A stretch of DNA of 32,000 nt from an uncultured Erysipelotrichaceae bacterium (GCA_942493105.1 OW818668.1:210001-242000); one strand, 5' to 3'; positions 1-32,000 are shown, numbered from the stretch's first letter. Numbers and translations are program-made. Notes: generated by a model from the letters alone, not told the origin.

Positions 1-1
1 A

Positions 2-10831: not shown

Positions 10832-10957
10832 ATTCAGTCTCCTTTATTTAATAAACAATAATTACATAAATATTCAAATATAGAATTATATCGCTTTTAT
10901 AAATGAGGTTTGATGATGTTACTGCAATTGGTATGGATATTGTTTTCTCAACAATCA

Positions 10958-12494: not shown

Positions 12495-12517
12495 ACAAAA
12501 AACAGCCGACGCTGTTA
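12495..12517 (-). terminator. Rho-independent terminator overlapping the HAD gene stop codon
   Basis: The minus strand reads TAACAGC-gtcg-GCTGTT followed by TTTTTGT. Confidence 0.7.
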
Positions 12518-13240: not shown

Positions 13241-13257
13241 CCAAACTATGTCTCCAA

Positions 13258-13384
13258 TTATAACTCAGCACGGTCTTAGTGTTCGCTTTACACGAAGCAT
13301 TCCTCATAGTCTAGTGTGAACACTTGAGCATACGCAAACGATTCCCATGGTCGTCCGTTTAAGACCGTAGTAAGCGTTGTCTTT
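13258..13384 (-). repeat. H foldback repeat copy 1 (most diverged; left edge of the array)
   Basis: Reads agcacggtctt...gctttacacgaagc...cccatggtcgtccgtttaagaccgtagt. The central hairpin carries a compensated pair (GCTT/AAGC). Confidence 0.8.
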
Positions 13385-13613
13385 TCTCAGATAAACTGCT
13401 CTTGTTATTCAACTTTCATCATCATTCTGTCTCATTCATTCTACCCTATTTTAGAGCTACAAACATCACTAATTTAGTGTTCATTTTCTTATTATTTCGG
13501 TTCTCTTTTAAAAAGAAATCTCAAAATCCGTTACACATTTGTTACACTTCGGAATTGGTGATTTGTCCACTATAATATTTAACAATGGGACGTAGTTTTC
13601 TCAACACACTCCA
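13385..13613 (-). repeat. Module L copy 1, short form (single GTTACAC box, no 203-bp insert) plus T-like tail
   Basis: Collinear with 21413-21561 and 24990-25138. The single box AATCCGTTACACATTTGTTACACTT is at 13525-13549. The right flank matches the sequence after the second box of the 25.3-kb copy. Confidence 0.8.
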
Positions 13614-14024
13614 CTAATCCGAGTTCGGAATCTCAGTTCGTATAAAGGTAATTTCTCTGACTTGACCATTGAACATACTGTCATTTTCCAAACTAATCTT
13701 TACAGTAAGCTTCTCAGAACTAAATTTGCATACACCCCAGAAGTATCGCTGAGTTAGATTCTCATCGGTCCAAAAACCTACACCTGTATTGTTATTGAAA
13801 ATTACAGTAAAATGATACGTAATATCGTTATAGATAAGTTGTCCAGTTGGGGCGGTATATCCATCACCAGCAATTTCATACACTTCAAACCAAATATCTG
13901 GATCTTCAGATATCCAAATGGCTGAACCAAGATCCGTTGGCTTTTTCCCAGCATATTGGTCAATACAACCTGCTAAAGAAAGAAAGACTGATAAGATCAG
14001 AAGTCTAATGAGTACTTTTTTCAT
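13614..14024 (-). CDS. Lipoprotein (cassette ORF)
   Basis: MKKVLIRLLILSVFLSLAGC signal peptide with lipobox. Start set at ATG 14024, with the AAAGGTGG RBS provided by leader A. Confidence 0.75.
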   Translation of the reverse strand: MKKVLIRLLILSVFLSLAGCIDQYAGKKPTDLGSAIWISEDPDIWFEVYEIAGDGYTAPTGQLIYNDITYHFTVIFNNNTGVGFWTDENLTQRYFWGVCKFSSEKLTVKISLENDSMFNGQVREITFIRTEIPNSD

Positions 14025-14095
14025 GTTACCACCTTTCATTAACTGTCTTATTGAATTTTATTCGACTCTCTCTACAACCACTGAAGTCCAGTTCT
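14025..14095 (-). repeat. Leader module A copy 1 (shared 5'UTR with RBS)
   Basis: Near-identical to 24249-24320. Conservation continues through ATGAAAAAAGTA, the first four codons. Confidence 0.8.
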
Positions 14096-14212
14096 CAGAA
14101 CTCACCACGGTCTTCGTATTCGCTCCAGGTGGAGCATTCCCTCTGACCGAGTAACAACATATTAGCTCTCGTAAATGAGTCCCACGGTCATCCGTTTAAG
14201 ACCGTGGTCAGA
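14096..14212 (-). repeat. H foldback repeat copy 2 (core subtype II)
   Basis: Reads cagaactcaccacggtcttcgtattcgctccaggtggagcattcc...cccacggtcatccgtttaagaccgtggtcag. The central core is gaccgagtaacaacatattag instead of ctagtatgaacgcttaggcac. Confidence 0.9.
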
Positions 14213-14320
14213 GGCGATGTACTCATGCAACTTGGACATTGCGACTCGACTAGAGTTGGCCTATTCCGGGTAACCTTGAATTTACTCAGAAATTCAAATA
14301 TCTCTGAACGTACTAAGTAT

Positions 14321-15163
14321 TTATTTACGCAAATTCTCAATTTTGCTTGGAGCTCTATCAAGTAACAGTTGTCCAATCTTTAGCTTTTCATATCCAGAGT
14401 CTATCAGTCTCTGATTATTCTTATTAAGGCCTTCTGTAATTTCGTCGATCCCCTTTAGATGATAATCTATAGAAGCAATGACATCATTAATAACAGGCAG
14501 AAACTGATTAATTTTCAATATATCTCTCACATTTTCTACTCTGCTTTTAAACTCGTTAGCAACTATTAAATAGGCATCCTTGCCTGAAATCTTGTAATTA
14601 TCGACTGTTTCATTAAAAATCCAAAACTTAGCAATCACTTGTGGTACCCTATCCAAATAGTCCGATATAAATGCTTCTTCACCATCAATTGAATAAGTTG
14701 CCTCAAGCCTAGTTATGTTCCCTCCAAGATCAGTAAGTATAAGCATTGTTTTTTGATTTTGACCATCAAAACTAAAATCAGGCAATTTTTCAAATGTTAC
14801 CATCACTGCTGTGCTATCAATGATCTTGTCAATAAACTGATCTGGGGTAAAAGTTTCCCCATAAGCAATTGATACTGGTTTCAGTATTGCATTAGGTTTA
14901 ATGGTATCCTTAACTACAACACTTAATGTTACTACACCCTTACCAGTTCCATATGAAACCACATAATCACCAGGAATTTCCATATTTGTTGGATTGTCAA
15001 TTTCCACTTTGCTTTTAGGTGAAACTACATAATCCAACGGACTAAAAGGTTCACCAGCCTCCAAAATGATGTTGCTTTGACTTAATTCAATTTTCTGTGC
15101 TACACAAGCTGAAATCGAAAACATAACAAGCATTAGCAATAAATAAGTAGATAAAGATTTCAT
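14321..15163 (-). CDS. Lipoprotein with two Ig-like (DUF5011-type pattern) segments (cassette ORF)
   Basis: MKSLSTYLLLMLVMFSISAC lipobox, repeated ..G(E)xFxPxxxV.. segments, GGAGGGGG RBS. Confidence 0.75.
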   Translation of the reverse strand: MKSLSTYLLLMLVMFSISACVAQKIELSQSNIILEAGEPFSPLDYVVSPKSKVEIDNPTNMEIPGDYVVSYGTGKGVVTLSVVVKDTIKPNAILKPVSIAYGETFTPDQFIDKIIDSTAVMVTFEKLPDFSFDGQNQKTMLILTDLGGNITRLEATYSIDGEEAFISDYLDRVPQVIAKFWIFNETVDNYKISGKDAYLIVANEFKSRVENVRDILKINQFLPVINDVIASIDYHLKGIDEITEGLNKNNQRLIDSGYEKLKIGQLLLDRAPSKIENLRK

Positions 15164-15290
15164 AATCCCCCTCCGTTTTATTCAGTTATATAGTTAGTAT
15201 ATCAAATTAACCACTACTAACAACGCGTATAATTTACATAAACAGAATTTGATTGCACTGAAAACTATATATATTAAGGAGTGCTTATTT

Positions 15291-15353
15291 TATGTATAGT
15301 CATTATTTCAGTCACATATGAATACTCAATTCGATTGTTTGCATGATTATCCC
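15291..15353. repeat. Module M copy 4
   Basis: tgtatagtcattatttcagtcacatatgaatactcaattcgattgtttgcatgattatccc aligns with 13178-13243. Confidence 0.65.
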
Positions 15354-15433
15354 ACGAAGCATTTTCAAAAATACTCCTCAGGAATATTGTCATCTAGGTA
15401 ATAAGCTCATCATATCTATATGATGATCTATTC

Positions 15434-15535
15434 ATTCACTCTGTCAATCCGGAACACTTAGGGAAGCGTTCTGTATGGACGAGTATCAACTTAAGGGCTG
15501 GGTGAGTTCGTGTCTTTCGTGATGACTGGACATGC
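15434..15535 (-). repeat. Decayed H repeat (subtype II-like)
   Basis: aagcgttctgtatggacgagtatcaac...cgtgatgactgg is collinear with copy 3 (gagcgttcatcgtgaccgagtaacaat...ccgtggtatg). The arms are no longer complementary. Confidence 0.35.
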
Positions 15536-15615
15536 AGTTTGAAGCACTAGAATTATTATGCAGTATGCAAAACAAATGATATACATTAACAATACAGACT
15601 GATCACTTCAATATC

Positions 15616-15644
15616 TTGACAACGGTCATGCATAGTGTAATTAT
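15616..15644 (+). promoter_or_regulatory. Sigma-A-type promoter candidate for the plus-strand SHOCT gene
   Basis: TTGACA (15616-15621), 17-nt spacer, TGT-AATTAT (extended -10-like). About 30 nt upstream of the GGAGG RBS. Confidence 0.5.
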
Positions 15645-15672
15645 GTCCTTAAACATATTTGGAGGTACACAC

Positions 15673-15936
15673 ATGAGTGAATGGGACTTTCTTTGGGGAT
15701 TAAAAGGAAAAGAACTAGAAGATGCTATGTCAACTGGCATGGACCAATTTGATCGCGATTATTTAAGTAAATCCAAACATTTAAATAATGAGAATAAAGC
15801 TATAAATGAACAGCATAGGCTTGCGTTAAAAGCAGAGTGGGAAAGTCTCAAGCAACTAAGAGATAGTGGTGCCATAACAATGGAAGACTTTAGAATGAGA
15901 AAAAGAGCATTATTCCCAATCAAAAAGCAAAAATAG
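15673..15936 (+). CDS. SHOCT-domain small protein (plus-strand cassette ORF)
   Basis: The C-terminal LKQLRDSGAITMEDFRMRKRALF matches the SHOCT pattern. Start set at ATG 15673, 7 nt after GGAGG. Confidence 0.6.
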   Translation: MSEWDFLWGLKGKELEDAMSTGMDQFDRDYLSKSKHLNNENKAINEQHRLALKAEWESLKQLRDSGAITMEDFRMRKRALFPIKKQK

Positions 15937-16000
15937 AAACCGGTAGCCATAGAACACGAACATATACTCTCGTTGTTAGCGACATATTATCTTGAGTTCT

Positions 16001-16117
16001 TAGAACTCACCACAGCCTTTATATTCGCTCCAAGTTGAGCGTTCATCGTGACCGAGTAACAATATATTAGTTCTAGTAATCGAGTCATACGGTCGTCCGT
16101 TTAGGACCGTGGTATGA
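16001..16117 (-). repeat. H foldback repeat copy 3 (core subtype II, diverged arms)
   Basis: tagaactcaccacagcctttatattcgctccaagttgagcgttc...catacggtcgtccgtttaggaccgtggtatg. Confidence 0.85.
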
Positions 16118-16337
16118 TCAGTCTCATGCTCATACACCTTAACAATGAGCTCACTTAAAGTCAGCCTATTTCATTTATGCCAAATACAAATTTAGACTGC
16201 TTTTGTACAAGAAAATGACCAACTAACTTCAAATGTTGAATAAATTCCGTATGATATACTTGATGTGAAATTGCACCATTACCAATCTCATAATTATGAA
16301 TTTTGGAGTGCTTTTATCCAATAGCGGAGGAAATATC

Positions 16338-16607
16338 ATGACGACACTAGAATCATATTGCTTTAGAATCTACCATGAGATATATAAAAGAGAATTGAGC
16401 AATTATGTAAAGCAATGGACAGCAAAACACAACCATATTCCAGAATTTAAGTATGATTCTTGGAGTCGATACGCACAAGAAGAGGCACTAAACCAATCAA
16501 TAGAAAGAGTAATCCAAGAATTTCCATTAATTGATCCGAATTTGATTACAGAAACTATACGAAAAATCCACTTAGAGTGGGATTCAGATATAATTCTAGT
16601 TGACTAG
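16338..16607 (+). CDS. Hypothetical small protein (plus-strand cassette ORF)
   Basis: ATG 16338 lies 7 nt after GGAGGAAA. 89 aa, no family recognised. Confidence 0.5.
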   Translation: MTTLESYCFRIYHEIYKRELSNYVKQWTAKHNHIPEFKYDSWSRYAQEEALNQSIERVIQEFPLIDPNLITETIRKIHLEWDSDIILVD

Positions 16608-16635
16608 ACTTTAATTATTGTGTACATATAAAACA

Positions 16636-16701
16636 GATCTGAGTTGTCTTGTACTCATACAACTTTAGCATTGTGGCTCTACAGAAGACGACTTATACCA
16701 A
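16636..16701 (-). repeat. Module T copy with only the last few nt of H attached (H-less junction remnant)
   Basis: gatctgag + ttgtcttgtactcatacaactttagcattgtggctctacagaagacgacttataccaa parallels 31760-31823 but lacks the body of H. Confidence 0.6.
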
Positions 16702-16726
16702 GTTGTTGATTATTCAAACTACTCGT

Positions 16727-17134
16727 TTATTCTATTTTGACATCTTGCGCCAGTTTTGAAATCTGATCTGAAGTCACTTTTCCTTCACGAGCTAGACTAT
16801 CCAATTCATTCTTCGTCAAATACGCATCATTACACAATTCAAGCGCCTCATCATATGTCATCTCTACATAATCTTTTCTTTCGACAAAATAATTCTTTAA
16901 AATGAATTCTATTCCAAATACCTCACAAGCTAGTGTGATTACACCATTCTTGGCTGCGTTCTCAATGAACTCATTAATTGTCTTACCTTGGCTCCGATAC
17001 AATTCGATGCCATCCTCATCGACTGGGTCTCTTGTTAAAAATGTCGCTATTAATAATTCTGCCACATCTTCATCTCTCATGATCATATATAATATGAACT
17101 TTTGTAAACTGAACACCAATTCTGATTTTGGCAT
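16727..17134 (-). CDS. Hypothetical cytoplasmic protein (cassette ORF)
   Basis: Start set at ATG 17134 (MPKSELVF), 6 nt after AAAGGGAG. 135 aa, acidic and helical. Confidence 0.55.
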   Translation of the reverse strand: MPKSELVFSLQKFILYMIMRDEDVAELLIATFLTRDPVDEDGIELYRSQGKTINEFIENAAKNGVITLACEVFGIEFILKNYFVERKDYVEMTYDEALELCNDAYLTKNELDSLAREGKVTSDQISKLAQDVKIE

Positions 17135-17305
17135 TTCATCTCCCTTTACTTGATGGTTCTCTCTCAACCTATATTGAACACGACTCCTTTTCAACGACAT
17201 TTAGAGCTAGTGTCAATTTATGTGCTTTTCTGCAAATATCTAAATACCCAACCTGGTTTGCCCACTACGTTGTTCCAAAGTATAATGGAATGGTCCATCT
17301 TTGAA

Positions 17306-17351
17306 CTCATACAACTTAACATTGTGTCTATACAAAAGTCGACCTATTCCA
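17306..17351 (-). repeat. Module T copy
   Basis: ctcatacaacttaacattgtgtctatacaaaagtcgacctattcca. Confidence 0.75.
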
Positions 17352-17521
17352 GTTTTACTGGTTGATCCTTATAAAGGAACTTTATAAGGTATATCAGACC
17401 ATCTCTATTACGTGCAGTTTGACTTTGGTTGATTCCCATGTACTCTTAACCAACTTTATCACCTGATCTCATCAAACCTTACCAAATAAGAAAAATCCTG
17501 TATGTACAGAAGTCAATAAAG

Positions 17522-18301
17522 CTAAATATCAACTAGATTAATCATATTAAGGTTTGTACTATCATATAGATACTCACCATGCCGAACAATCAATCTTCGA
17601 ATACATCGATGCAACCAAGCTTCTTCTATTTGGCTAAGTGTATGTTCTGATTTCTTCTCCACTTTTCTAGCTGAGAACTCGTCACCTTTTACAGAAGTCC
17701 AAGTCCCTAGTTGGACAAGAATAGCAGAATCAATACACAATTTTTGCCCTATTCGGTTTCTTCTAGGTGTTCGGCCACTAATGTTATCTCCGAACTCATC
17801 TTCAATGACCGTCAAATAGTAATACCCAAAGTTTAGAATGTGTTCTTTACCTTGTAATACTCCCATATAACGTTCAATTACTTTTTGAAGTTTGATGTTT
17901 GTTTTAAAATTCGCGTGAGCTATTGGAAATTCTCTTAAATTTCTTATCGCATAACCTTCGCATGTAATTGTCGATTTACAGTAAATGTTGCCTGAGAGGT
18001 ATTTAATATTTGGATCGAGTTCTTCATAAACATATCCCTTTTTATAGAATCTTATACTATCTTCGCCATACTCGAGGTCATACTGATAATACCAATCAGC
18101 GAAAATAGAGTTTGCATTTGCCTCAATCTTCGCAACGTTCTCAAGTGGTTCTTTTAGATGAATGATTATTCTTTTGTCTTTAAAAGTTATTGTAAAATCC
18201 GGATAATCGAAAGACTTTTCTATAAATGATTGGATATTCACTGTCTTGTTAACATCAATGTCATAAAGAATGCTTTTAATTCTTGGTTTACTTTGGTCCA
18301 T
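17522..18301 (-). CDS. Hypothetical protein, 259 aa (cassette ORF)
   Basis: Long uninterrupted ORF co-oriented with the array. Weak RBS, no family recognised. Confidence 0.55.
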   Translation of the reverse strand: MDQSKPRIKSILYDIDVNKTVNIQSFIEKSFDYPDFTITFKDKRIIIHLKEPLENVAKIEANANSIFADWYYQYDLEYGEDSIRFYKKGYVYEELDPNIKYLSGNIYCKSTITCEGYAIRNLREFPIAHANFKTNIKLQKVIERYMGVLQGKEHILNFGYYYLTVIEDEFGDNISGRTPRRNRIGQKLCIDSAILVQLGTWTSVKGDEFSARKVEKKSEHTLSQIEEAWLHRCIRRLIVRHGEYLYDSTNLNMINLVDI

Positions 18302-18402
18302 TTAGTTACTCATTTTCGAAATGCTTCCTGTTTTATATAAAAGTTCTGATTTGCTCATATGCCCCGATACACTCTTTTAAGAGTAGCAAGCTTGCCCCTA
18401 AT

Positions 18403-18459
18403 TTGTTCCAAAACAGAATAGAGTTTTAAGCTCGACAACAACCCTATATATTCAGTTCT
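18403..18459 (-). repeat. Leader module C copy 1
   Basis: The minus strand reads GAACTGAATATATAGGGTTGTTGTCGAGCTTAAAACTCTATTCTGTTTTGGAACAA. It matches 28022-28078. Confidence 0.7.
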
Positions 18460-18566
18460 TAGAACTCACCACAGTCTTCGTATTCGCTCCAGGTGGAGCA
18501 TTCACCACATTCTAGTATGAACGCTTAGGCACCCAATCGTGTCCCACGGTCGTCCGCTTAAGACCT
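18460..18566 (-). repeat. H foldback repeat copy 4 (3' arm truncated/decayed)
   Basis: tagaactcaccacagtcttcgtattcgctccaggtggagcattc...ttaggcacccaatcgtgtcccacggtcgtccgcttaagacct. Confidence 0.85.
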
Positions 18567-18577
18567 TGTTTTAAGTG

Positions 18578-18625
18578 CTCATTCAAGGTTAACATTGTGC
18601 CTCTACAAAAGTCGACCTATTCCAA
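18578..18625 (-). repeat. Module T copy
   Basis: ctcattcaaggttaacattgtgcctctacaaaagtcgacctattccaa, 38 nt after the stop of the FRG gene. Confidence 0.8.
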
Positions 18626-18663
18626 TAGTTAACCTAATCCACTTAGATACTTATAAAATAGTA

Positions 18664-19569: not shown

Positions 19570-19693
19570 ATAAGCTCCTTTTTGAATTATACTTCTGTTA
19601 CAAATTTAAACTATTGGTTGGTAATGTATACAAAACTGAATGATATACCCCATAAATTGTTTTAAAATAGAATGTTAATGATCCATATTTTGT

Positions 19694-19775
19694 ACTTAAA
19701 CAAGTTTATCATTTCGACTCCATAATAGTCGATTTATTCCAATATTGCGTTTCATCAAAAGCTAACTTATTCCAA
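19694..19775 (-). repeat. Module T copy plus a second partial T start abutting the HNH gene stop
   Basis: One copy is tcatttcgactccataatagtcgatttattccaa (19694-19742). A partial copy, ctaacttattccaa (19761-19775), sits 3 nt from the stop at 19779. Confidence 0.6.
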
Positions 19776-19778
19776 GGA

Positions 19779-21269: not shown

Positions 21270-21295
21270 AATATCCCCCTTTATGTCTCTAGTTA

Positions 21296-21412
21296 CATAA
21301 CGCACCACGGTCTTTGTATTCGCTCCAGGTGGAGCATTCCCCATAGTCTAGTATGAACGCTTAGGCACACCCCATCGTGTCTCACGGTCGTCCGTTTAAG
21401 ACCGTAGTCAGC
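21296..21412 (-). repeat. H foldback repeat copy 5 (L-linked)
   Basis: cataacgcaccacggtctttgtattcgctccaggtggagcattcc...ctcacggtcgtccgtttaagaccgtagtcagcg. Confidence 0.9.
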
Positions 21413-21847
21413 GTGGTCTTTTCTCAGTCAAACTGCTCTTGTTATTCAACTTTCAACATCATTCTATCTCATTCATTCTACCCTATTTTAAAGCTATATA
21501 TATCACTAATTATGTGTTCATTTTCTTATTATTTCGGTTCTCTTTTAAAAAGAAATCTCAAAATCCGTTACACTTTTGTTACACTTGGACAAAGTGACCT
21601 GCAAAAAAGCCTTATAGAATAAGGCTTCGTGAAGTCATGGTGCCATCACCGAGAGCAGAATTTATGCGTATTTTTAGGTGTCAGTTATGATAAAAGGCTT
21701 AAAAAACAAGCCTTTTAGTCGATTTTTATCGAATTAAGTGTGATTAAATCGGAATTATATAGGTAATCCGTTACACATTTGTTACACTTCGATGTGATCA
21801 AACTGTCCACCAACAATCGTCTGCAAAGGGACTTCATTTTTCTTAAC
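21413..21847 (-). repeat. Module L copy 2, long form (two GTTACAC boxes 203 bp apart) plus T-like tail
   Basis: Near-identical to 24990-25440. Boxes are at 21562-21586 and 21765-21789, with internal hairpins at about 21606-21630 and 21693-21717. Confidence 0.85.
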
Positions 21848-22342
21848 TTACCTCATTCTTTTGCGTTTCACTTTATCGACTTGATAAAATAGTGAAATCA
21901 GAAAAATGGCATATGAAATTCCAATCAATGGTCGAAACACAAACCATCCGGTGATTATCCATAAACTAGAAAAAATCACAGTTGCTAAAAACCCAAGTGC
22001 GAATCCCCAGTATGGAAGTAACAGATTTAACGGAACAATCCCCAGCTTATCAAGGTAAAACATTCTCCATTTTCTTTCTCCTCTTTTCTTATAGTTCTCT
22101 TTATCGTGTTTTCTCAGATATTTTGAAATTAGTGGAAAGTATAGTGTGTGTCCTCCTACATAATGAATTACTGGAAACGCAATAATGAGCATTATTATTA
22201 TGAAAAATTCTTCTAGGCTCATCATCTTACTGTTACCACGCTTTCTGATTAAGTTCAAAGTCAAATGATATTGGTCTGCTTCGACTTTTATGGAGAGGTT
22301 TTGTCCCCACCCATCACTATTCCCATTATCCCTATTAATCAT
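21848..22342 (-). CDS. Small membrane protein, about 3 TM (cassette ORF; start uncertain)
   Basis: The track start at 22342 lies in module B (MINRDNGN...). An alternative start, ATG 22225 (MMSLEEFF), lies just before the first TM helix. Confidence 0.6.
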   Translation of the reverse strand: MINRDNGNSDGWGQNLSIKVEADQYHLTLNLIRKRGNSKMMSLEEFFIIIMLIIAFPVIHYVGGHTLYFPLISKYLRKHDKENYKKRGERKWRMFYLDKLGIVPLNLLLPYWGFALGFLATVIFSSLWIITGWFVFRPLIGISYAIFLISLFYQVDKVKRKRMR

Positions 22343-22372
22343 CCGTTAGTCTACCTGCAATTCATCTATTGC
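22321..22372 (-). repeat. Module B copy 1
   Basis: Minus strand: GCAATAGATGAATTGCAGGTAGACTAACGGATGATTAATAGGGATAATGGGA. Confidence 0.7.
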
Positions 22373-22489
22373 CAGAACTCACCACGGTCTTCGTATTCGC
22401 TCCACATGGAGCATTCCCCACAGTCTAATATGAACGCTTAGGCACTGCCAATCGTGTCCCCAGTCGGCCATTTAAGACCGTGGTCTGAG
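22373..22489 (-). repeat. H foldback repeat copy 6
   Basis: cagaactcaccacggtcttcgtattcgctccacatggagcattcc...ccccagtcggccatttaagaccgtggtctgag. Confidence 0.9.
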
Positions 22490-22574
22490 TCAACATTACC
22501 TCAAGAAATCAAGTCTCTCAACTTGACATTATGAAGTCACTAATAATTTCATAACATTTTCTTTTTCTCATGTT

Positions 22575-23312: not shown

Positions 23313-23430
23313 AATTCCCCTCCTCTTTCACCCAGTAATGATCGGTTTTGGTTTGCTTAATACCTAAATAGTAAGTTGGTCTGTTCCAACTTTTGTGGGG
23401 ATCTTTCGGATGATCTTGATTATTATTCCC

Positions 23431-23478
23431 ATTATCCCTTTTCTTCATCTATTAGTCTACCTTCAATTCATCTAATCT
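23431..23478 (-). repeat. Module B copy 2
   Basis: Minus strand: AGATTAGATGAATTGAAGGTAGACTAATAGATGAAGAAAAGGGATAATGGGA. Confidence 0.8.
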
Positions 23479-23597
23479 CAGAACGCACCACGGTCTTCGT
23501 TTTCGCTTCATGTGGAGCATTCTCCGCACATCTAGTATGAACGCTTAGGCACTATCAATCGTGTCCCACGGTGAGTTTGCCAAGACCGTGGTCTGAG
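23479..23597 (-). repeat. H foldback repeat copy 7 (loop allele GAGTTTGCCA)
   Basis: cagaacgcaccacggtcttcgttttcgcttcatgtggagcattc...cccacggtgagtttgccaagaccgtggtctgag. Confidence 0.9.
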
Positions 23598-23633
23598 TCC
23601 GGATTGTTATGCGTATTCAACTGAAGATCTAGA

Positions 23634-24248: not shown

Positions 24249-24320
24249 GTTACCACCCTTTCATTAAATGTCTTATCGAGTTTTATTCGACTCTCCCTAC
24301 AACCACTGCTGTTCTATTCA
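24249..24320 (-). repeat. Leader module A copy 2
   Basis: Minus strand: TGAATAGAACAGCAGTGGTTGTAGGGAGAGTCGAATAAAACTCGATAAGACATTTAATGAAAGGGTGGTAAC, followed by ATGAAAAAAGTA. Confidence 0.8.
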
Positions 24321-24439
24321 CAGAACGCACCACGGTCTTCATATTCGCTCCATGTGGAGCATTCCCCACAAGCTAGTATGAAATGCTTAGGCACAGGTAA
24401 TCGTGTCACACGGTGAGTTTGCCAAGACCGTGGTCTGAG
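24321..24439 (-). repeat. H foldback repeat copy 8
   Basis: cagaacgcaccacggtcttcatattcgctccatgtggagcattcc...cacacggtgagtttgccaagaccgtggtctgag. Confidence 0.9.
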
Positions 24440-24503
24440 TTAGTGTTATCTGAAGATCCAATAAAGTCTTGGACTTCACTTTTCTCTTCACCCCAAAAAC
24501 TAT

Positions 24504-24761: not shown

Positions 24762-24822
24762 AATTTATGACCCCTAACTTTCACTTTCTTGTTCAAGGAG
24801 TAAATCTTCATCAACGCTATCC

Positions 24823-24872
24823 TCATTATCCCTTTTCTATACCGGTTAGTCTACCATCAACTCAACTAATCA
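24823..24872 (-). repeat. Module B copy 3 (first ATG replaced by ATA)
   Basis: Minus strand: TGATTAGTTGAGTTGATGGTAGACTAACCGGTATAGAAAAGGGATAATGAGG. Confidence 0.7.
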
Positions 24873-24989
24873 CAGTACGCACCACGGTCTTCGTATTCGC
24901 TCCATGTGGAGCATTCCCACTCATCTAGTATTAACGCTTAGGCACATGCTATCGTGTCCCACGGTCGACTATTTAAGACCGTGGTCAGC
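24873..24989 (-). repeat. H foldback repeat copy 9 (L-linked)
   Basis: cagtacgcaccacggtcttcgtattcgctccatgtggagcattcc...cccacggtcgactatttaagaccgtggtcagcg. Confidence 0.9.
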
Positions 24990-25440
24990 GTTGTCTTTTC
25001 TCAGTCAAACTGCTCTCGTTATTCAACTTTCATCATCATTCTGTCTCATTCATTCTACCCTATTTTAGAGCTATATATATCACTAATTTAGTGTTCATTT
25101 TCTTATTATTTAGGTTCTCTTTTAAAAAGAAATCTCAAAATCCGTTACACTTTTGTTACACTTGGACAAAGTGACCTGCAAAAAAGCCTTATAGAATAAG
25201 GCTTCGTGAAGTCATGGTGCCATCACCGAGAGCAGAATTTATGCGTATATTTAGGTGTCAGTTATGATAAAAGGCTTAAAAAACAAGCCTTTTAGTCGAT
25301 TTTTATCGAATTAAGTGTGATTAAATCGGAATAAAATAGGAAATCCGTTACACATTTGTTACACTTTGGAATTGGCTATTTCTACCACTATGACATGCTC
25401 AAAGGATCATCGCATTTTCTCAATACACCACAGTTCGTAA
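24990..25440 (-). repeat. Module L copy 3, long form
   Basis: Boxes at 25139-25163 and 25342-25366, 203 bp apart. The sequence after the second box (ttggaattggctatttctaccactat) matches the flank of the single box at 13550-13575. Confidence 0.85.
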
Positions 25441-25520
25441 TCGCATTAATGAAGTACGGGGCACATTCATATATTGTTGCCGAATACACTGAATAACTTT
25501 GTCAAATAGATGAAATTTTA

Positions 25521-26057: not shown

Positions 26058-26312
26058 AAATCCACCATATCTTCATTATAAACACAAAGGAATCTCAATA
26101 AGTTGTGACTTTGTGTAAATAGAGTAAAAACACCTGTTAAGATGCTTCAGAATGCGCTGGGTTGATTGGATAATGAGATTTGAATTGATCCTTTCTTGAC
26201 ATTACAAGATCTTCGAGTTCCAAACAAATCCTCCATAGACTTCTATATTTATCTTGTTTCAAGGCTTATCTAGTCAAAATATTACAAAGGATCATATCAA
26301 TAAACCAGTTCT

Positions 26313-26430
26313 CAGAACGCACCACGGTCTTCGTATTCGCTCCAGGTGGAGCATTCTCGTTACACTAGTATGAACGCTTAGGCACACCCAATCGTGTCCC
26401 ACGGTCGTCCGTTTAAGACCGTGGTCTGCG
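26313..26430 (-). repeat. H foldback repeat copy 10 (close to consensus)
   Basis: cagaacgcaccacggtcttcgtattcgctccaggtggagcattctcgttacactagtatgaacgcttaggcacacccaatcgtgtcccacggtcgtccgtttaagaccgtggtctgcg. Confidence 0.95.
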
Positions 26431-26486
26431 TCAATATTCAACGAAAGTATTAGGAATATCTTATGTAACCACTTCCATTTAGTCAT

Positions 26487-26861: not shown

Positions 26862-26922
26862 GATAATTATCCTATCTGGCCTTCCCCCATTACTTATTCC
26901 AAATCAGTATTAACTCTTTAAT

Positions 26923-27003
26923 CTCATTATCCCTTTTCTTCATCCGTTAGTCTACCTTCAATGCGATCATTTAGAGGCTCTACTATAAACAACCGCAGTC
27001 CAA
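26923..27003 (-). repeat. H-less junction: module B copy 4 fused directly to a T-like module
   Basis: ctcattatcccttttcttcatccgttagtctaccttcaatgcgatcat (B) is followed by ggctctactataaacaaccgcagtccaa (T-like), ending 3 nt from the stop at 27007. Confidence 0.6.
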
Positions 27004-27006
27004 TCT

Positions 27007-27174
27007 CTATTTCTGATTTTCTGAGAGTTTAACCAATGTATAGCACAAATAATTTATGCCCATAAAGACTATTGAACCACCCATAACTTCTGGGATTGGC
27101 ATAATCCAACCTGTAATAAACACACTCACAAACCATACCGCAAAACCAATAAGAAACACTTTAATTGCTTTCAT
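27007..27174 (-). CDS. Very small membrane protein, about 55 aa (cassette ORF; start uncertain)
   Basis: AGGAGGAT sits directly upstream of ATGATTATG. The second ATG, at 27174, has the better spacing. Two hydrophobic helices. Confidence 0.45.
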   Translation of the reverse strand: MKAIKVFLIGFAVWFVSVFITGWIMPIPEVMGGSIVFMGINYLCYTLVKLSENQK

Positions 27175-27261
27175 AATCATATCCTCCTGTTCATTCAAAT
27201 TGTACCGTTTATCCTCCATGTTTACTACACAAAACAGTGATTTTTGTTGCCTATTTAAGAA

Positions 27262-27586
27262 TGTTTTTTATAAATCCGTTACACTTTTGTTACACTTGGA
27301 CAAAGTTACCTGCAAAAAAGCCTTATAGAATAAGGCTTCGTGAAGTCATGGTGCCATCACCGAGAGCAGAATTTACGCGTATTTTTAGGTGTCAATTATG
27401 ATAAAAGGTTTAAAAAACAAGCCTTTTAGTCGATTTTTATCGAATTAAGTGTGATTAAAACTAAATAAAACAGGAAATCCGTTACACATTTGTTACACTT
27501 CGATGTGATCAAATTATCTATCAATAATCTTCCGCAAAGAGACTTCTCTCTTCTCAATACACTCCTGTCCCAACTAAAAAATAACC
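27262..27586 (-). repeat. Module L copy 4, partial: only the box-203 bp-box unit plus T-like tail, with no H and no left arm
   Basis: Boxes at 27273-27297 and 27476-27500. The interior differs from the other two copies at only a handful of scattered positions plus a more variable stretch just before the second box. The right flank resembles that of the 21.8-kb copy. Confidence 0.8.
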
Positions 27587-27979
27587 TTAACACTCTATCC
27601 TTTCCAAAATGCATAAAAGTTCTCTCGCTATCTGACGCAGTTCTTCCCAAAGCAAATGATTTTTCAATCCATTTAATGTCCAAAAATCTTCATCATATGT
27701 AGCACCATCCAAAGAAATATCGTGAAATTTTTTATCTATTTCTTTGTATAAATCAATCACATTATTGCTAATCATATTTTGATTAAACATATGCATGACA
27801 CCATTTTTTAAATCATTCCAAATCCAGTCACTAGCAATATCATTGGTTATATAGTCTTTGAGCATAGACAGCTGTTTATATTGCTCTTCATACGACAATG
27901 CTAATGTTTTAGCTTGTTCAATATAATAATCAATTTCATTTTTTCTGATTTTCTGAATTTCCTTTTTCTTTTTTATCAC
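27587..27979 (-). CDS. Hypothetical cytoplasmic protein, about 130 aa (cassette ORF)
   Basis: GTG 27979 lies 8 nt after GGTGGAGGA. The track TTG start at 28030 sits inside leader C. Confidence 0.5.
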   Translation of the reverse strand: MIKKKKEIQKIRKNEIDYYIEQAKTLALSYEEQYKQLSMLKDYITNDIASDWIWNDLKNGVMHMFNQNMISNNVIDLYKEIDKKFHDISLDGATYDEDFWTLNGLKNHLLWEELRQIARELLCILERIEC

Positions 27980-28021
27980 TTGATGTTCCTCCACCAGTAT
28001 GGAAATAGTCTGCCACCTAAA

Positions 28022-28078
28022 TTGTTCCAAAACACAATTGATTGTTTAACTCGACAACAACCCTTAATATCCAGTTCT
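28022..28078 (-). repeat. Leader module C copy 2
   Basis: Minus strand: GAACTGGATATTAAGGGTTGTTGTCGAGTTAAACAATCAATTGTGTTTTGGAACAA. Confidence 0.7.
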
Positions 28079-28196
28079 CAGAACTCACCACGGTCTTCGT
28101 ATTCGCTCCAGGAGGAGCATTCTCCACACTCTAGTATGAACGCTTAGGCACATGCAATCGTGTCCCACGATGAGTTTACCTAGACCGTGGTCTGCG
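28079..28196 (-). repeat. H foldback repeat copy 11 (sister of copy 12)
   Basis: Shares private variants with copy 12: ccaggaggagc loop, catgcaatcg, cccacgat, gtctgcgtca. Confidence 0.95.
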
Positions 28197-28203
28197 TCAA
28201 TAT

Positions 28204-28251
28204 ATTCATGCAGTCTAAATATCGTGTCATTACGGAAGTCGACCTATTCCA
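28204..28251 (-). repeat. Module T copy overlapping the 3' end of a CDS
   Basis: attcatgcagtctaaatatcgtgtcattacggaagtcgacctattcca. GGAATAGGTCGACTT encodes the C-terminal G-I-G-R-L of the 28230-28538 ORF. Confidence 0.8.
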
Positions 28252-28538
28252 CCATTCTTCTTAACATATTTCTCGATCTTTTTCATTTCTTTAATTGAAA
28301 TCTGTCTACCGCATTTTGGACACAAGAACTCGGTCCATATAAACTTAACATCTCCAAACATGTATCCATCTCCTCCTACAGAACTAAAATCGTACTCTTT
28401 TGCCTCTGGAGATTTGGAATTTACTATCTTGGAAACCTTAGTTTTGAATAATAAAGAATGACAGTCAGGGCAGTAATGCTTCTTACAGTTGACATAAAAT
28501 GGATTTTTCCATGTTCTCACGATGCTTTTAAATTTCAT
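28230..28538 (-). CDS. Zinc-ribbon small protein, 102 aa (cassette ORF)
   Basis: Contains CPDC and CPKC pairs. Start moved to ATG 28538 (MKFKSIV), 5 nt after GGAG, because the track start at 28646 lies inside repeat H. Confidence 0.65.
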   Translation of the reverse strand: MKFKSIVRTWKNPFYVNCKKHYCPDCHSLLFKTKVSKIVNSKSPEAKEYDFSSVGGDGYMFGDVKFIWTEFLCPKCGRQISIKEMKKIEKYVKKNGGIGRLP

Positions 28539-28597
28539 AATTGCTCCAAAGTTTACTCTTTTTCGTTGTTTCCCATAAACCACTACACTTCCATTCT

Positions 28598-28715
28598 TAG
28601 AACGCACCACGGTCTTCGTATTCGCTCCAGGAGGAGCATTCTCCACACTCTAGTATGAACGCTTAGGCACATGCAATCGTGTCCCACGATGAGTTTGCCA
28701 AGACCGTGGTCTGCG
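28598..28715 (-). repeat. H foldback repeat copy 12 (sister of copy 11)
   Basis: I count four differences from copy 11 over ~118 nt. Confidence 0.95.
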
Positions 28716-28756
28716 TCAGTGTAAACTTAGGCTCTCGACTAAACCCAATGCGGTAC

Positions 28757-29233
28757 TTATAACAATTTGATTGATTCGGATAATCTATGAACAAGCTTAT
28801 CAGGGAAAGCATAGTTCTTATGCCATGCCATTTGGTACATAGAGCCAGGATAATCTGAATTTAGTTGATTCAATGCTCGAAGTATTGCTCTAGCAAATCT
28901 GATTTGGGAAACGTTCCCTTGATAAAGAACCTCTTTATCAAAAGTCATCGTTCTTTCGTTATATAGGGAATAGATTACACTGATTGACACTTCCAGGTTC
29001 TCTTCGGAAATAGTCCATTGTACCTCTCCAGGTTCATTCATCCAAACAAAAGATCTTTCCTTTGAGCCTTCGCACATTAAGACAATAGCTATTGTAAAAT
29101 CGTATATAGCATCCGTTAAATAGGAAGAAGTTATTACTGTCTCTTTATCCACATCCTGTATTGTCATATCAAGCCAGCCATTTTGTATTGATATCTTGCT
29201 TATTGTGAATTGATTGTTCATTAACCCCATCAT
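28757..29233 (-). CDS. Hypothetical cytoplasmic protein, 158 aa (cassette ORF)
   Basis: Uninterrupted ORF. The start lies at the edge of module B copy 5 (AAAAGGGATGATGGGG). No family recognised. Confidence 0.55.
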   Translation of the reverse strand: MMGLMNNQFTISKISIQNGWLDMTIQDVDKETVITSSYLTDAIYDFTIAIVLMCEGSKERSFVWMNEPGEVQWTISEENLEVSISVIYSLYNERTMTFDKEVLYQGNVSQIRFARAILRALNQLNSDYPGSMYQMAWHKNYAFPDKLVHRLSESIKLL

Positions 29234-29265
29234 CCCTTTTCTACATCCATTAGTTTACCTAGTAT
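29226..29265 (-). repeat. Module B copy 5 (solitary, diverged)
   Basis: Minus strand: CTAGGTAAACTAATGGATGTAGAAAAGGGATGATGGGG. There is no H or T in this 63-nt junction. Confidence 0.5.
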
Positions 29266-29296
29266 ATCGATACCATGTTTATTTTTACTTCAATGA

Positions 29297-30727
29297 TTAT
29301 TGGTAAAAACTTAGGAAATCTTCAAGTGTCGAACTTGGATTGGCATTCTTGGTTGCTTCTATGTAGAACCATGTATATTCAAGATCGTGAAGGATTACTG
29401 GCAATTCTTTCTTGAACTGGGTTTTGATGAATCCGGTCTGATGAAGTTCCTTTATGATCTCGACAAATAAACCAAGGATCTCGACTAATCCATTGGGTCC
29501 TTTACCGATGTATCTCGATTTAGCATCATGGATAGGACCTTCTTCGAAACCGATATCTTTGACTTTCATTTTCTTCAACCATGATAATACGTCAGCTTTG
29601 CTTTCATCGTCTTCGATAATGGGAACTTCATTTTGAAGCCAGAAAGCATAATTCCATCGTTCTTCTGATTTTGGATCTATATTGAATTCAGATTCGGTAT
29701 TGTAAGTGAGGTAGACATTAGGAATAAAATCTTCACCTTCATCAGCTTCAAAGTAAAGGGATAAGGAATAAATCGCAGGGTCATCAAAAGCCTTGATCTG
29801 ATCAGTGAGTTTTTTTAATAACTCGTTCTTCAGATAGCTCGTTGTGATCAGTTGCTTAGAGACTTTTTTTGGATTCTCGTTTTTAGGATAGTTAATACTA
29901 TCGTCTTTCAGATCAAGTCTTGACTTAGTTTCTATAGTATTATTTTTATTGCGCACTTGTTTTCCCTGGCTATCCGAAGACGAGAAATGTGTTTTGAATC
30001 GATTAGAAGATTTATGATAACATAAGACAGTCCCATCTTCATTCAGGTAAGTACCGCCGACAATATACCCTTCATGATCATAGTCAGGTTTGATTCGTTC
30101 ATGCTTTATAGGAAAAGAGTAAAACTTTCTGTATACATTGATAATCTCAACCTTGGTTTCGTTGTAGGTTAGGGTATAGTAATTGAAATTACAGTCATTT
30201 TCATTTATATTCTTAAATCTTGTTCTTATCTCATCTTTCAACTCCCCTCTCCAATCCTCTAGTACTCCATAACTGATCATCTTTCCTTCACTATCAAATT
30301 TTGATAGTGAAAATTGAATGATTTTGTTCACATAGATATTTCCATGAAACACAAAAGACCATTCGACTTCGCCTTCTCGAAAGAAAAACTCTGTTACTTT
30401 AATATCTTCTTTGCCCCATAAATGATGATGAGTCGTACGAATTAGAATGTTATTCGAATCAAAATCGTGAACAAATACATCATCAAGTATCTTAGGTACC
30501 CTACTTAACTTTCTTCCCAAGTCAAGGTTAGTTACCTGTATTTTCATGAAAGGTACTTTTTGGTAGTATCCGCCAATTTCAGATTTACATCTAGAATACT
30601 CTTTTTTGACTGTCCTCTTGTCAAATTCAGCATAAAGTTCATTTATGTCCCTTGTTAAGGCATCAAAATTCTTTGAATTGGCGATTATATCAAGCATATG
30701 TCTTAATTCATCATTATATTCGTTCAT
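29297..30727 (-). CDS. Hypothetical protein, about 476 aa (largest cassette ORF)
   Basis: ATG 30727 (MNEYNDEL) lies 5 nt after GGGGG. No TM segments, no family recognised with confidence. Confidence 0.65.
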   Translation of the reverse strand: MNEYNDELRHMLDIIANSKNFDALTRDINELYAEFDKRTVKKEYSRCKSEIGGYYQKVPFMKIQVTNLDLGRKLSRVPKILDDVFVHDFDSNNILIRTTHHHLWGKEDIKVTEFFFREGEVEWSFVFHGNIYVNKIIQFSLSKFDSEGKMISYGVLEDWRGELKDEIRTRFKNINENDCNFNYYTLTYNETKVEIINVYRKFYSFPIKHERIKPDYDHEGYIVGGTYLNEDGTVLCYHKSSNRFKTHFSSSDSQGKQVRNKNNTIETKSRLDLKDDSINYPKNENPKKVSKQLITTSYLKNELLKKLTDQIKAFDDPAIYSLSLYFEADEGEDFIPNVYLTYNTESEFNIDPKSEERWNYAFWLQNEVPIIEDDESKADVLSWLKKMKVKDIGFEEGPIHDAKSRYIGKGPNGLVEILGLFVEIIKELHQTGFIKTQFKKELPVILHDLEYTWFYIEATKNANPSSTLEDFLSFYQ

Positions 30728-30807
30728 CTTGACCCCCATTAAGTTATGTTACTTAAGATAGTTTGTCCTTTACAAAGCACCTATAATGCAGCTTGACTCT
30801 TGATTTC

Positions 30808-30854
30808 ATTATCCCTTTTCTTCATCTATTAGTTTACTTCAATTCATCTAATCC
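30808..30854 (-). repeat. Module B copy 6
   Basis: Minus strand: GGATTAGATGAATTGAAGTAAACTAATAGATGAAGAAAAGGGATAATGAAA. It opens a 14-codon ORF, MKKRDNEIKSQAAL. Confidence 0.8.
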
Positions 30855-30971
30855 CAGAACTCACCACGGTCTTCGTATTCGCTCCATATGGAGCATTCCC
30901 CACAATCTAGTATGAACGCTTAGGCACACCCAATCGTGTCCCACAGTGAGTTTGCCAAGACCGTGGTCTGC
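30855..30971 (-). repeat. H foldback repeat copy 13
   Basis: cagaactcaccacggtcttcgtattcgctccatatggagcattcc...cccacagtgagtttgccaagaccgtggtctgc. Confidence 0.9.
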
Positions 30972-30998
30972 ATCGCAATCTAAAACCAGTATTTCTGT

Positions 30999-31628
30999 TT
31001 ACTTGTACTGATTTGATTTTTCCTCATATTCTGTTGCTTTAACCAGATCCCCTAAACGTTTATAAAACAAGGATTCGAATTTGTAGCCAAATCGTTTAAT
31101 ATCATCATAATCATATTCTGTGATGATTTTCTCAATCATCTCTATACTCCAGGTCAAAACTTCAGTGGTTGCATCGCTATCTTGTTGGATCAAAGTAAAA
31201 GGAGCTAGTATACTTAAATAATCTGAAGAGGCTATGAGTAATTTATATCGCATCTCAAATGCTTCCTTAAATTCGGAAATTTGATCTAATTGATAAAGTG
31301 CAAAAAGGTATTCAATATAGAAAATCTCATAGTCTTGTTCTGTCATGTTAGTTGGTTTGTTTTCTATTGCTAAATAATAGTATTTTGCTTTTTCTTTATA
31401 TTGACCTTCAACCTTAAGCAGAGATTTTATGAGGTTTACCAAACTGTTATCAGAATGGTAAAAATCATATTCTCGTTCATACCATATAACCGCTTCGCTA
31501 TAATTACTCCTAGATACATAAAAGTCTCCAATTTGTCTTGAAAAAACATTTAAACTGAGACCTAGAACTATCGTTAATCCAATAGCAGAGGCAAATATAA
31601 TCAACAGAACTTTTATTGGCTTTTTCAT
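30999..31628 (-). CDS. Membrane-anchored helical-repeat protein, 209 aa (cassette ORF)
   Basis: N-terminal TM anchor (VLLIIFASAIGLTIVLGLSL), then Y/E/K-rich helical repeats (TPR-like impression only). GGAAAGGGGA RBS. Confidence 0.65.
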   Translation of the reverse strand: MKKPIKVLLIIFASAIGLTIVLGLSLNVFSRQIGDFYVSRSNYSEAVIWYEREYDFYHSDNSLVNLIKSLLKVEGQYKEKAKYYYLAIENKPTNMTEQDYEIFYIEYLFALYQLDQISEFKEAFEMRYKLLIASSDYLSILAPFTLIQQDSDATTEVLTWSIEMIEKIITEYDYDDIKRFGYKFESLFYKRLGDLVKATEYEEKSNQYK

Positions 31629-31648
31629 TCTATCCCCTTTCCATTAGT

Positions 31649-31767
31649 TAGAGCGCACCACGGTCTTCGTATCCGCTCCAGGTGGAGCATTCTCCACACT
31701 CGAGTATGAATGCTTAGGCACAGCCAATCGTATCCCACGGTGAGTTTGCCAAGACCGTGGTCTGAGT
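31649..31767 (-). repeat. H foldback repeat copy 14
   Basis: tagagcgcaccacggtcttcgtatccgctccaggtggagcattc...cccacggtgagtttgccaagaccgtggtctgag. Confidence 0.9.
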
Positions 31768-31774
31768 GCTCAGG

Positions 31775-31823
31775 GGCTCATACTACTTTAACATTTCGAA
31801 TCTGCAAAAATCGACCTGTTCCA
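31775..31823 (-). repeat. Module T copy
   Basis: ctcatactactttaacatttcgaatctgcaaaaatcgacctgttcca, ending 3 nt from the stop at 31827. Confidence 0.8.
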
Positions 31824-31826
31824 CTA

Positions 31827-32000
31827 TTACTTGGTCACATTGTAATAATATTCGATGTCGCTTAGACCAATTGTCTGTGTAGTCCCATCTGAATATTCGA
31901 CAATGATTTCGCTAATTGTCGATGAGTCGTAAGAATAGCTGTAAAAAAGTGTAGTATTTCTTTTGTAAGAAGATGTTGCACCTGCAGCTAATGGTCCTGT
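31827..32000 (-). CDS. 3' end of a further cassette ORF (5' part beyond the window)
   Basis: My hand translation of the minus strand is open from 32000 down to TAA at 31827-31829 (...SDIEYYYNVTK*). It is absent from the ORF track because no start lies in the window. Confidence 0.45.
   Translation of the reverse strand, partial: TGPLAAGATSSYKRNTTLFYSYSYDSSTISEIIVEYSDGTTQTIGLSDIEYYYNVTK

Follow-up and report, generated by a model that had tools for sequence, protein, structure and literature searches.

This locus raises the question of how a long array of short, unrelated and co-oriented genes, with one structured repeat at their boundaries, is built up and reshuffled. The stretch analysed here, hereafter the window, is 32,000 nt of DNA from an uncultured Erysipelotrichaceae bacterium (GCA_942493105.1, OW818668.1:210001-242000). 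It carries 14 co-oriented full-length copies (13,247-31,775) of H, a GC-rich foldback repeat of about 125 nt, as found by repeat finding, alignment and a covariance model (R1) made from H copies. H is read here on the minus strand, the sense of the flanking genes. A preliminary description, made from the sequence alone, had taken the array as integron-like. The part of this view that stands is that the array consists of unrelated accessory-gene cassettes. What it missed is a tRNA-anchored accretion: our comparison with related loci showed that the array is a tandem accretion of small elements encoding no integrase, which belongs to the class of cis-mobilizable elements (CIME). Moreover, the comparison indicates that cassettes are exchanged at H on a second, finer level.

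Arrays anchored at tRNA-Thr genes

Loci fetched for comparison with the window are labelled L002, L003 and so on up to L027. Their arrays begin right after a tRNA-Thr(CGT) gene in L002, L015, L024 and L025, and right after a tRNA-Thr(GGT) gene in L007, L018 and L027, in the same orientation as the tRNA gene. No tRNA-Thr gene was seen in the window itself, which contains three times a module of about 550 nt that the preliminary description called L. Its first part is a conserved arm, which contains a hairpin and the direct repeat GTGTAACAAATGTGTAACGG; then come a core identical to the last 17 nt of tRNA-Thr(GGT), an intrinsic terminator identical to that after the real tRNA gene, and a second GTGTAAC-N4-GTGTAAC box, so that one direct-repeat box lies on each side of the core (coordinates in Table 1). 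Eight or more such tRNA 3'-end cores with conserved arms on both sides are found in related loci, and the CGT-anchored arrays contain matching CGT-type cores with homologous arms. In addition, the tract common to L003 and L006 stops exactly at a core. This organisation marks the L modules as att junctions, the classical scars of site-specific integration at the tRNA 3' end, repeated in tandem.

The units bounded by these junctions are about 1.4-8 kb long, and none of the roughly 15 that were seen has an integrase, so they fit the CIME class. One complete array could be reconstructed because L015 and L017 overlap by 663 nt at 100% identity; the joined array of about 15 kb has four internal cores and IS3 and IS110 insertions (IS, insertion sequence), and no tyrosine or serine integrase was present in the results shown for it. 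In L002/L024 and in L007, the 6 kb before the first H likewise showed no recombinase. Among the 25 of 67 Pfam families listed for 89 open reading frames (ORFs) of the loci, neither Phage_integrase nor Resolvase occurred, and the transposases seen in the related arrays were only IS3 and IS110. A scan of the window ORFs also agreed with the earlier statement that no tyrosine or serine recombinase is encoded there, the nearest thing being a weak partial Resolvase match inside an HNH protein. The preliminary description had expected a cognate recombinase or expression site beyond the right edge of the window. Since no dedicated recombinase was seen at the upstream ends of two related arrays, nor in the reconstructed array, it is more likely that a tRNA-Thr(GGT) gene lies beyond position 32000 than a recombinase or an expression site.

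Differences between close relatives are consistent with this organisation. The flank of L024 and L025 is 99.96% identical up to 126 nt past the tRNA, and then the cassettes differ. A minimal island is found in L027, where the order is tRNA, an IS110 copy in the terminator T-run, arm, a 70-aa gene, a HAD gene, arm and a degenerate core; R1 found no H in this island, and in the window these two genes lie about 13.7 kb farther apart. As to the distribution of the junctions, their patterns are absent from IMG/VR, and one match to the arm-box pattern (L020) proved to be an unrelated viral contig with TGTAAC iterons. The GTGTAAC-N4-GTGTAAC boxes fit TGTWAH-N5-TGTWAH, which we take to be the motif of WalR/OmpR-type response regulators; equally, they could be putative arm-type sites for an integrase or excisionase.

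Some further observations concern these junctions. At 14214-14523 of L025, a GGT-type junction (85% identical to L of the window) lies inside the tRNA-Thr(CGT)-anchored array, which suggests that material moves between the two tRNA-Thr islands of one genome. IS elements repeatedly sit in the tRNA-derived terminator beside the att core (L027 8130-9966; L015 5245-8406; L003 6714-6760; L017 3321-3345). The IS110-family copy of L027 is inserted in the terminator T-run between GGCTTTTT and TTTTGCAGG, and a 91% identical copy is present in L015. A sequence starting with TGAGTCTGTTCATTTAATTGTGACAG breaks the terminator loop in L015 (beside an rve/IS3 ORF) and in L003, and in diverged form in L017. 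These insertions suggest that IS elements may target the junction terminator site-specifically. We also considered IS110 as the island integrase, with H as its bridge RNA, and rejected this idea because the IS110-bearing L027 has no H and the IS lies in the terminator T-run, not in the core. In a distant relative (L021 10906-16389; SPFH protein 69% identical), tiny co-oriented ORFs lie downstream of the SPFH gene, one of them with the phage-associated DUF3310; this region has no tRNA and no H, and a prophage-like element may occupy the corresponding site there.

Copies of H in the window and elsewhere

The 14 window copies score 111-158 bits with R1, and the 14 start coordinates of the preliminary description agree with R1 and repeat finding. 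A 23-nt core pattern of H with three or fewer mismatches gave 13 matches, all on the plus strand, where shuffles expect 0.00. The leftmost copies are indeed the most diverged, with 58-81% identity to other copies. On the other hand, the decayed copy proposed at 15434 reached only 4.4 bits (E 9.6) and could not be upheld. That the first 13 kb are free of H was borne out, since R1 with its filters off found no copy in 1-13,000. A 16.6-bit match at 7208-7323 (minus strand, rough E 0.004), itself low in G+C, lies inside and antisense to an alpha/beta-hydrolase gene and is probably due to chance. A probable 3' end of H in a very decayed state (GAGTGAGTTTGAGAACTGGATAATTAAGG) lies behind the HAD-gene terminator, at 12427-12470, and a type-A leader comes next; R1 gives this H remnant only 5.3 bits.

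In scans of 185,579 species genomes and of JGI metagenomes, H was restricted to a few metagenome-assembled genomes of uncultured Erysipelotrichaceae and to related contigs. About 50 distinct copies are known to us, 47 including those of the window in the main set and a few more in later loci, and all of these (about 50 of about 50) are sense-oriented with respect to the flanking genes and lie in co-oriented arrays. Tens of kb of housekeeping flanks were fetched and contained no H. With regard to known families, Rfam 15 gave no match in the window at the gathering score and none overlapping H at E<5. With lax filters, a single H copy matched only SNORD15 at chance level (9 bits, E 8.6), in accordance with the earlier remark that H resembles no named RNA. 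IMG/VR, PLSDB plasmids and a phage collection also gave no match to H. Pattern matches in Dehalococcoidia (L004) and Saccharibacteria (L012) cover the short P3 hairpin only and were dismissed as chance. Thus, H is an element family held by none of the databases searched (Rfam, IMG/VR, PLSDB, phages).

Exchange of cassettes at H

In the window H outnumbers the att junctions (14 versus 3-4) and lies mostly between genes inside the elements. A comparison of related strains had been proposed in the preliminary description as a check on cassette mobility, and it showed that cassette content differs between close strains with breakpoints at H. The clearest case is a block of H, a 209-aa gene and H that is common to L002 and the window at 94.7% identity, its surroundings being all different; the copy at 31637-31775 and the 209-aa gene belong to this common part. 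Eight more tracts, 84-97% identical, are common among the loci, most of them with different neighbours; tracts found in differing surroundings reach 89-97%. By comparison, identity in the housekeeping flanks is just 72-79% for some of these genomes. The gene pool is large: the related arrays, about 190 kb in all, contain a homologue of just 3 of 24 cassette proteins of the window. The same gene may also be found with another module, as with the HAD gene, which has H upstream in the window and a type-C leader and no H in L027.

In the best exchanged pairs the gene is 96-100% identical and both flanking H copies only 83-89%, and the drop in identity falls at differing sites of H, namely its 5' edge, its middle or near P3. 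Which type of flank lies upstream of H does not correlate with the type downstream (rho 0.03), and polymorphisms of H track neither flank. Concerted evolution of H within a genome was rejected, as mean identity is 0.80 within and 0.81 between genomes. Inside H, linkage does not extend beyond about 10 nt, and all four gametes occur at 70-80% of site pairs, an incompatibility that could partly come from recurrent mutation. On these sequence comparisons, H copies are mosaics. Because the tract ends vary within H and the copies are mosaic, homologous recombination fits better than a fixed, attC-like crossover. The patterns thus indicate that cassettes probably move by homologous recombination or gene conversion over a pool of H copies and other modules.

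Anatomy of H

On the sense strand H has the layout ACTCAG-ACCACGGTCTT-(TTAAACGGACG or GGCAAACTC)-ACCGTGGGACACGATTGnnnGTGCCTAAGCGTTCATACTAGA-nnnnnnG-GAATGCTCC-ACCT-GGAGCGAATACG-AAGACCGTGGT-G(A/C)GTT... Its predicted fold consists of a perfect 11-bp closing stem (ACCACGGTCTT/AAGACCGTGGT), a three-way junction and two inner hairpins, without conserved bulged bases. The 11-bp terminal inverted repeats can be extended to CTCAG...CTGAG, and each H has three copies of ACCGTGG/CCACGGT. Among the 47 copies, column conservation is 0.90-0.98 in the stems and junction, 0.82 in the loops of the P2 and P3 hairpins and 0.69 in one junction stretch. The most invariant block is GAATGCTCC-N4-GGAGCGAATACGAAGACCGTGGTG, which contains CGAATA and TACGAAGA. 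The G+C content of H is 48-50%, against 35% in the region.

H is often joined at a fixed junction to a 50-nt T module upstream, and is followed by one of a few leader types. Past GTGGTG(A/C)GTT at the 3' edge the sequence splits into gene-specific leaders, and the next start codon lies 10-150 nt from the 3' end of H. Three candidate features of H were tried and rejected. An outer helix, or pairing like that of R''/R', in which the 5' flank AC[T/G]C[A/T]G would join G[A/C]GTT on the 3' side, gave no signal in the alignment (6 of 12 matches within a copy, 3 of 9 with the neighbouring copy). The frame NAPPGANTKTVV runs on into that of the downstream gene in 2 of 14 copies, but single-base indels and stops in the other copies speak against coding. 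A derivation from tRNA-Thr was dropped because only short words are common to both (GGAGC.AAT, AGTTCTGAG) and ARAGORN calls nothing.

A two-level island and the role of H

The best explanation of the locus as a whole, to which we assign a probability of roughly 45%, combines an accretion island with H as portable homology and as a transcribed leader. The window holds the distal part, at least 19 kb, of a hypervariable island organised on two levels. The first level is shown by the junctions: small elements lacking an integrase have successively integrated into the 3' end of tRNA-Thr(GGT), whose gene should lie beyond position 32000. The integrase for the tRNA core would have to come in trans. 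On the second level, which the exchanged tracts support in part, units of one or two genes would be separated by interchangeable modules, H being the commonest besides T, type-C and other leaders. Co-oriented H copies, about 80-98% alike, would serve as portable homology, and cassettes would be swapped between arrays and genomes by crossovers at variable positions in or beside H. Together with its cargo genes, H would further be transcribed as a leader, at the 5' end or between cistrons, and would influence processing, stability or expression.

The last step of this explanation starts from the conservation of 0.9-0.98 per column across genomes, which exceeds what pure homology would need, so that some constraint on H is likely. 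H is sense-oriented and placed before start codons, no intrinsic terminator lies between genes within the elements (the junctions carry strong ones), and H is rich in G+C and varies in its loops; these features together led us to the idea of a transcribed leader. A 5' or intercistronic leader for processing or stability is the most likely role in our opinion, with modest confidence. As another novel reading, which the data allow as much as the recombinase-site reading below, H may be a new processing or self-cleaving RNA which cuts the island operon transcripts into single-gene messages.

Several facts weigh against the combined explanation. The folding energy of H is better on the sense strand in eight of eight copies and z-scores against shuffles go down to about -4, but these z-scores are equal on both strands and the strand comparison is uninformative. 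Covariation does not go beyond conservation (92.1% of cells paired versus 91.7% in shuffles), and therefore the predicted fold is plausible but unproven. Copies from other genomes have a closing stem whose 5' arm is decayed or missing, and their 3' two-thirds are constant. Confinement to a mobile island would be unusual for a regulatory RNA, and the variable distance between H and the ribosome-binding site argues against direct control of translation. The recurrent mutation mentioned above bears on the mosaic structure. Moreover, no integrase was found for the first level either, so the missing nearby recombinase is compatible with an enzyme acting on H in trans.

Such an enzyme is the basis of another explanation, in which H is the site of a site-specific recombinase encoded elsewhere and recombination between two H copies excises and inserts single-gene circles, as an analogue of attC. 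H would then be the three-way-junction substrate of a new cassette-exchange system in Firmicutes, an integron analogue within tRNA-anchored islands that works with a trans-acting enzyme. We regard this as unlikely, in spite of a layout that resembles that of attC arrays in its co-oriented direct repeats at cassette boundaries and its free association of H flanks. The very diverse cassette pool and the differing cassette order in close strains would suit it as well, the integrase of the att level is likewise missing in cis, and the three ACCGTGG/CCACGGT copies could be binding sites. It is contradicted by the lack of R''/R' cores in all 47 copies, by the perfect 11-bp closing stem without extrahelical bases, and by the exchanged tracts, whose boundaries vary within H and whose genes inherit neither flanking H, the copies themselves being mosaics. 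No recombinase was seen at two upstream array ends or in the one array reconstructed end to end. Thus, the integron-analogue reading loses support.

Two more explanations seem to us slightly less probable still. As a non-autonomous foldback like a miniature inverted-repeat transposable element (MITE), H would insert between the T module and the leader with a transposase encoded elsewhere. The 11-bp terminal inverted repeats, the T-only intergenic regions that resemble H-free sites, the occurrence of one gene with and without H, and the polymorphism of H uncoupled from both flanks would all agree with insertion of this kind. A plain MITE swarm, one of the alternatives raised in the preliminary description, is hard to reconcile with about 50 distinct copies in a single orientation to the genes and none outside the tRNA-anchored arrays. 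Comparison of T-only with T+H sites defined no target-site duplication, none of the elements seen had matching ends (those of the IS3 and IS110 copies in the arrays are different), and the interior of H is better conserved than its ends. H could also act at the DNA level as a promoter or operator of the cargo genes, used by an alternative sigma factor or a regulator of the island or a helper, with transcription starting near the 3' edge. Its orientation and its position 10-150 nt upstream of start codons would be expected of a promoter, as would the divergence into gene-specific leaders right past GTGGTG(A/C)GTT and the lack of covariation. CGAATA and TACGAAGA in H are similar to TACGAATA, which we take to be the ComX box of streptococci, and to RGAAT, the -10 element in promoters of the sigma-H type, a resemblance only. 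Against a promoter, the near-invariant GC-rich sequence exceeds 100 nt and is much longer than a promoter requires, the nested hairpins with variable loops point to folding, and a sigma-70 scan found no enrichment (76 sites versus 81 expected).

Comparison with known systems

The resemblance to integrons is one of layout and outcome, not of mechanism. Like integrons or clusters of attC sites lacking integron-integrases (CALIN), the array has co-oriented short accessory genes, one structured repeat per boundary, a diverse pool, strain-specific order and distal decay. The core motifs of attC (RYYYAAC/GTTRRRY) are not present together in any of the 47 H copies on either strand, as already noted for the window copies in the preliminary description, and no correctly spaced core pair occurs in 13,000-32,000, where 2.1 are expected by chance. 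In its folded strand, an attC site is an imperfect palindrome, in which some bases are extrahelical and a central spacer stays unpaired, whereas H has a perfect stem and a three-way-junction interior. The crossover in attC is fixed and the 3' repeat is inherited with the gene; in H, the positions of the identity drop vary and the flanking copies are 83-89% identical. Integrons have IntI, attI and Pc at the array head (CALIN lack them by definition), but no IntI was found in the window or the related array heads examined. Unlike integrons, moreover, the H array has its own tRNA-based att system. Firmicutes are not known as integron hosts, and our literature search found nothing relevant.

The first level has closer relatives. 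For elements related to streptococcal integrative and conjugative elements, decay to a CIME and later integration of a new element into the att site have been described (PMC5704250). Similar in principle are the tycheposon islands of Prochlorococcus, which have partial tRNAs scattered through them and in which integrations follow one another at one site (bioRxiv 10.1101/2020.12.28.424599). Like these, the island starts at the tRNA 3' end, direct repeats of the tRNA 3' end bound its elements, older elements are displaced distally by newer arrivals, many units lack an integrase, and strains differ in content. By sequence, the tested features of a tRNA island of the integrase-less type were found, the abutting tRNA gene in relatives only and that of the window presumably outside it. 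Unlike in CIME and tycheposons, the units are very small and a second, finer layer of shuffling operates at a dedicated 125-nt repeat. Since tRNA-anchored accretion islands are already known, what is new here is the H family and this two-tier variant.

H itself may be compared with two other groups. BOX of Streptococcus pneumoniae, ERIC/IRU, the Correia elements of Neisseria and REP/BIME are intergenic foldbacks of about 100-150 nt, which form modules with neighbouring sub-elements, are co-transcribed with the genes beside them and can alter mRNA processing or stability, and are dispersed round the genome in both orientations. H is similar to BOX, ERIC and Correia as a modular intergenic repeat, but is confined to an island and strictly sense-oriented. 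The vsa, vsp and vpma loci of Mycoplasma, a related lineage, are arrays of surface or membrane genes with a conserved upstream sequence as recombination substrate, and a neighbouring Xer-like recombinase switches a single expression site by inversions between opposed sites. Unlike there, H repeats are all direct, the genes show no relation to one another, and a neighbouring recombinase is missing.

Integron-style shuffling has been held absent from Firmicutes, and uncultured Erysipelotrichaceae would reach a similar outcome by another route, in which accretion at tRNA-Thr builds the island and the conserved, strand-specific H supplies points of gene swapping between near-identical strains. If H serves as homology and leader only, the locus would be a natural example of non-coding modules that turn a tRNA island into a platform for cassette exchange. 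Should H instead prove to be the site of a recombinase, or an RNA with catalytic or processing activity, it would stand for a new system.

Cassette genes and other modules

The accessory character of the genes between H copies was described correctly: nearly all are on the minus strand, mostly without a Pfam match, and they encode FRG, SHOCT and zinc-ribbon proteins, an HNH protein with several helix-turn-helix (HTH) domains, three lipoproteins and several small membrane proteins. The T and L modules and the leader types reported alongside them are also real, as judged by repeat finding and nhmmer (Table 1).

Table 1. Features of the array, in nt from the first letter of the window; att junctions are named as interpreted in the text
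Feature	Coordinates	Strand	Remarks
H copy	31637..31775	-	R1 140.0 bits; 9 nt between model end and ATG at 31628
H copy	30843..30981	-	R1 153.4 bits
H copy	28586..28724	-	R1 153.8 bits
H copy	28067..28205	-	R1 152 bits; T module 28201-28252 directly before (nhmmer)
H copy	26301..26439	-	R1 157.6 bits
H copy	24861..24999	-	R1 151 bits; directly downstream of att junction L2
H copy	24309..24448	-	R1 143.6 bits
H copy	23467..23606	-	R1 144 bits
H copy	22361..22498	-	R1 147 bits
H copy	21284..21422	-	R1 147.5 bits; directly downstream of att junction L3
H copy	18448..18584	-	R1 138.3 bits; T module 18574-18625 before
H copy, diverged	15989..16127	-	R1 111.6 bits; no minus-strand gene after it
H copy	14084..14222	-	R1 134.7 bits; T module 14218-14268 before
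H copy, most diverged	13247..13385	-	R1 114.1 bits; downstream of L remnant
att junction L1	27251..27557	-	P arm, core 27349-27365, tRNA-type terminator, P' arm box
att junction L2	25000..25416	-	core 25215-25231
att junction L3	21423..21846	-	core 21638-21654
L remnant	13386..13573	-	box and P'-side sequence; core and terminator deleted
HAD hydrolase cassette	12515..13123	-	89.6% identical to L027
70-aa membrane protein	27007..27219	-	first gene after P' arm in window, L025 and L027
T module without H	10944..10994	-	nhmmer
T module	16650..16701	-	nhmmer
T module	17302..17352	-	nhmmer
T module	19691..19742	-	nhmmer
T module	19741..19776	-	nhmmer
T module	31774..31824	-	nhmmer
Type-C leader without H	26918..26962	-	repeat finding
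Type-C leader	22317..22361	-	
Type-C leader	23423..23467	-	
Type-C leader	24817..24861	-	
Type-C leader	29221..29265	-	
Type-C leader	30800..30844	-	

The largest cassette protein (19779-21272, minus strand) has an N-terminal HNH nuclease domain and four or five HTH units of resolvase or transposase type, with a GRP-like hinge before each unit; the weak partial Resolvase match mentioned above falls in it. It is the sole DNA-acting enzyme in the window array and has no homologue in the related arrays.

In L002, L015, L007 and L018, the type-C leader comes immediately behind the P' arm of the real tRNA genes. It has a conserved ATG that opens a short frame (M-K/I-K/N-R-D-N-G-N) and a promoter-like TAGACT-17-GATAAT, and may thus be a small upstream ORF, a promoter or both. 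For the T module a promoter is likewise plausible from its -35-like TCGACT and extended -10 TGtTAAAGT; the sigma-70 scan gave no enrichment in this respect either. T as an attC site was rejected, because GGTTAAC...GTTAACC occurs in one copy and is missing from the others. Another repeat module, D11, is found at 10171-10219, 11465-11513, 13178-13226 and 15290-15338 and can encode a mini-peptide (..SKEL..HI..). At 13233, just past the H copy at 13247-13385, its frame comes after a Shine-Dalgarno sequence and an ATG, and this mini-peptide may be a leader peptide.

The first 10 kb of the window are ordinary chromosome. The first ORF (38-1084) contains three tandem 357-nt repeats (45-1035), 70-74% identical; it matches fibronectin type III and is a repetitive surface-protein gene unrelated to the array.

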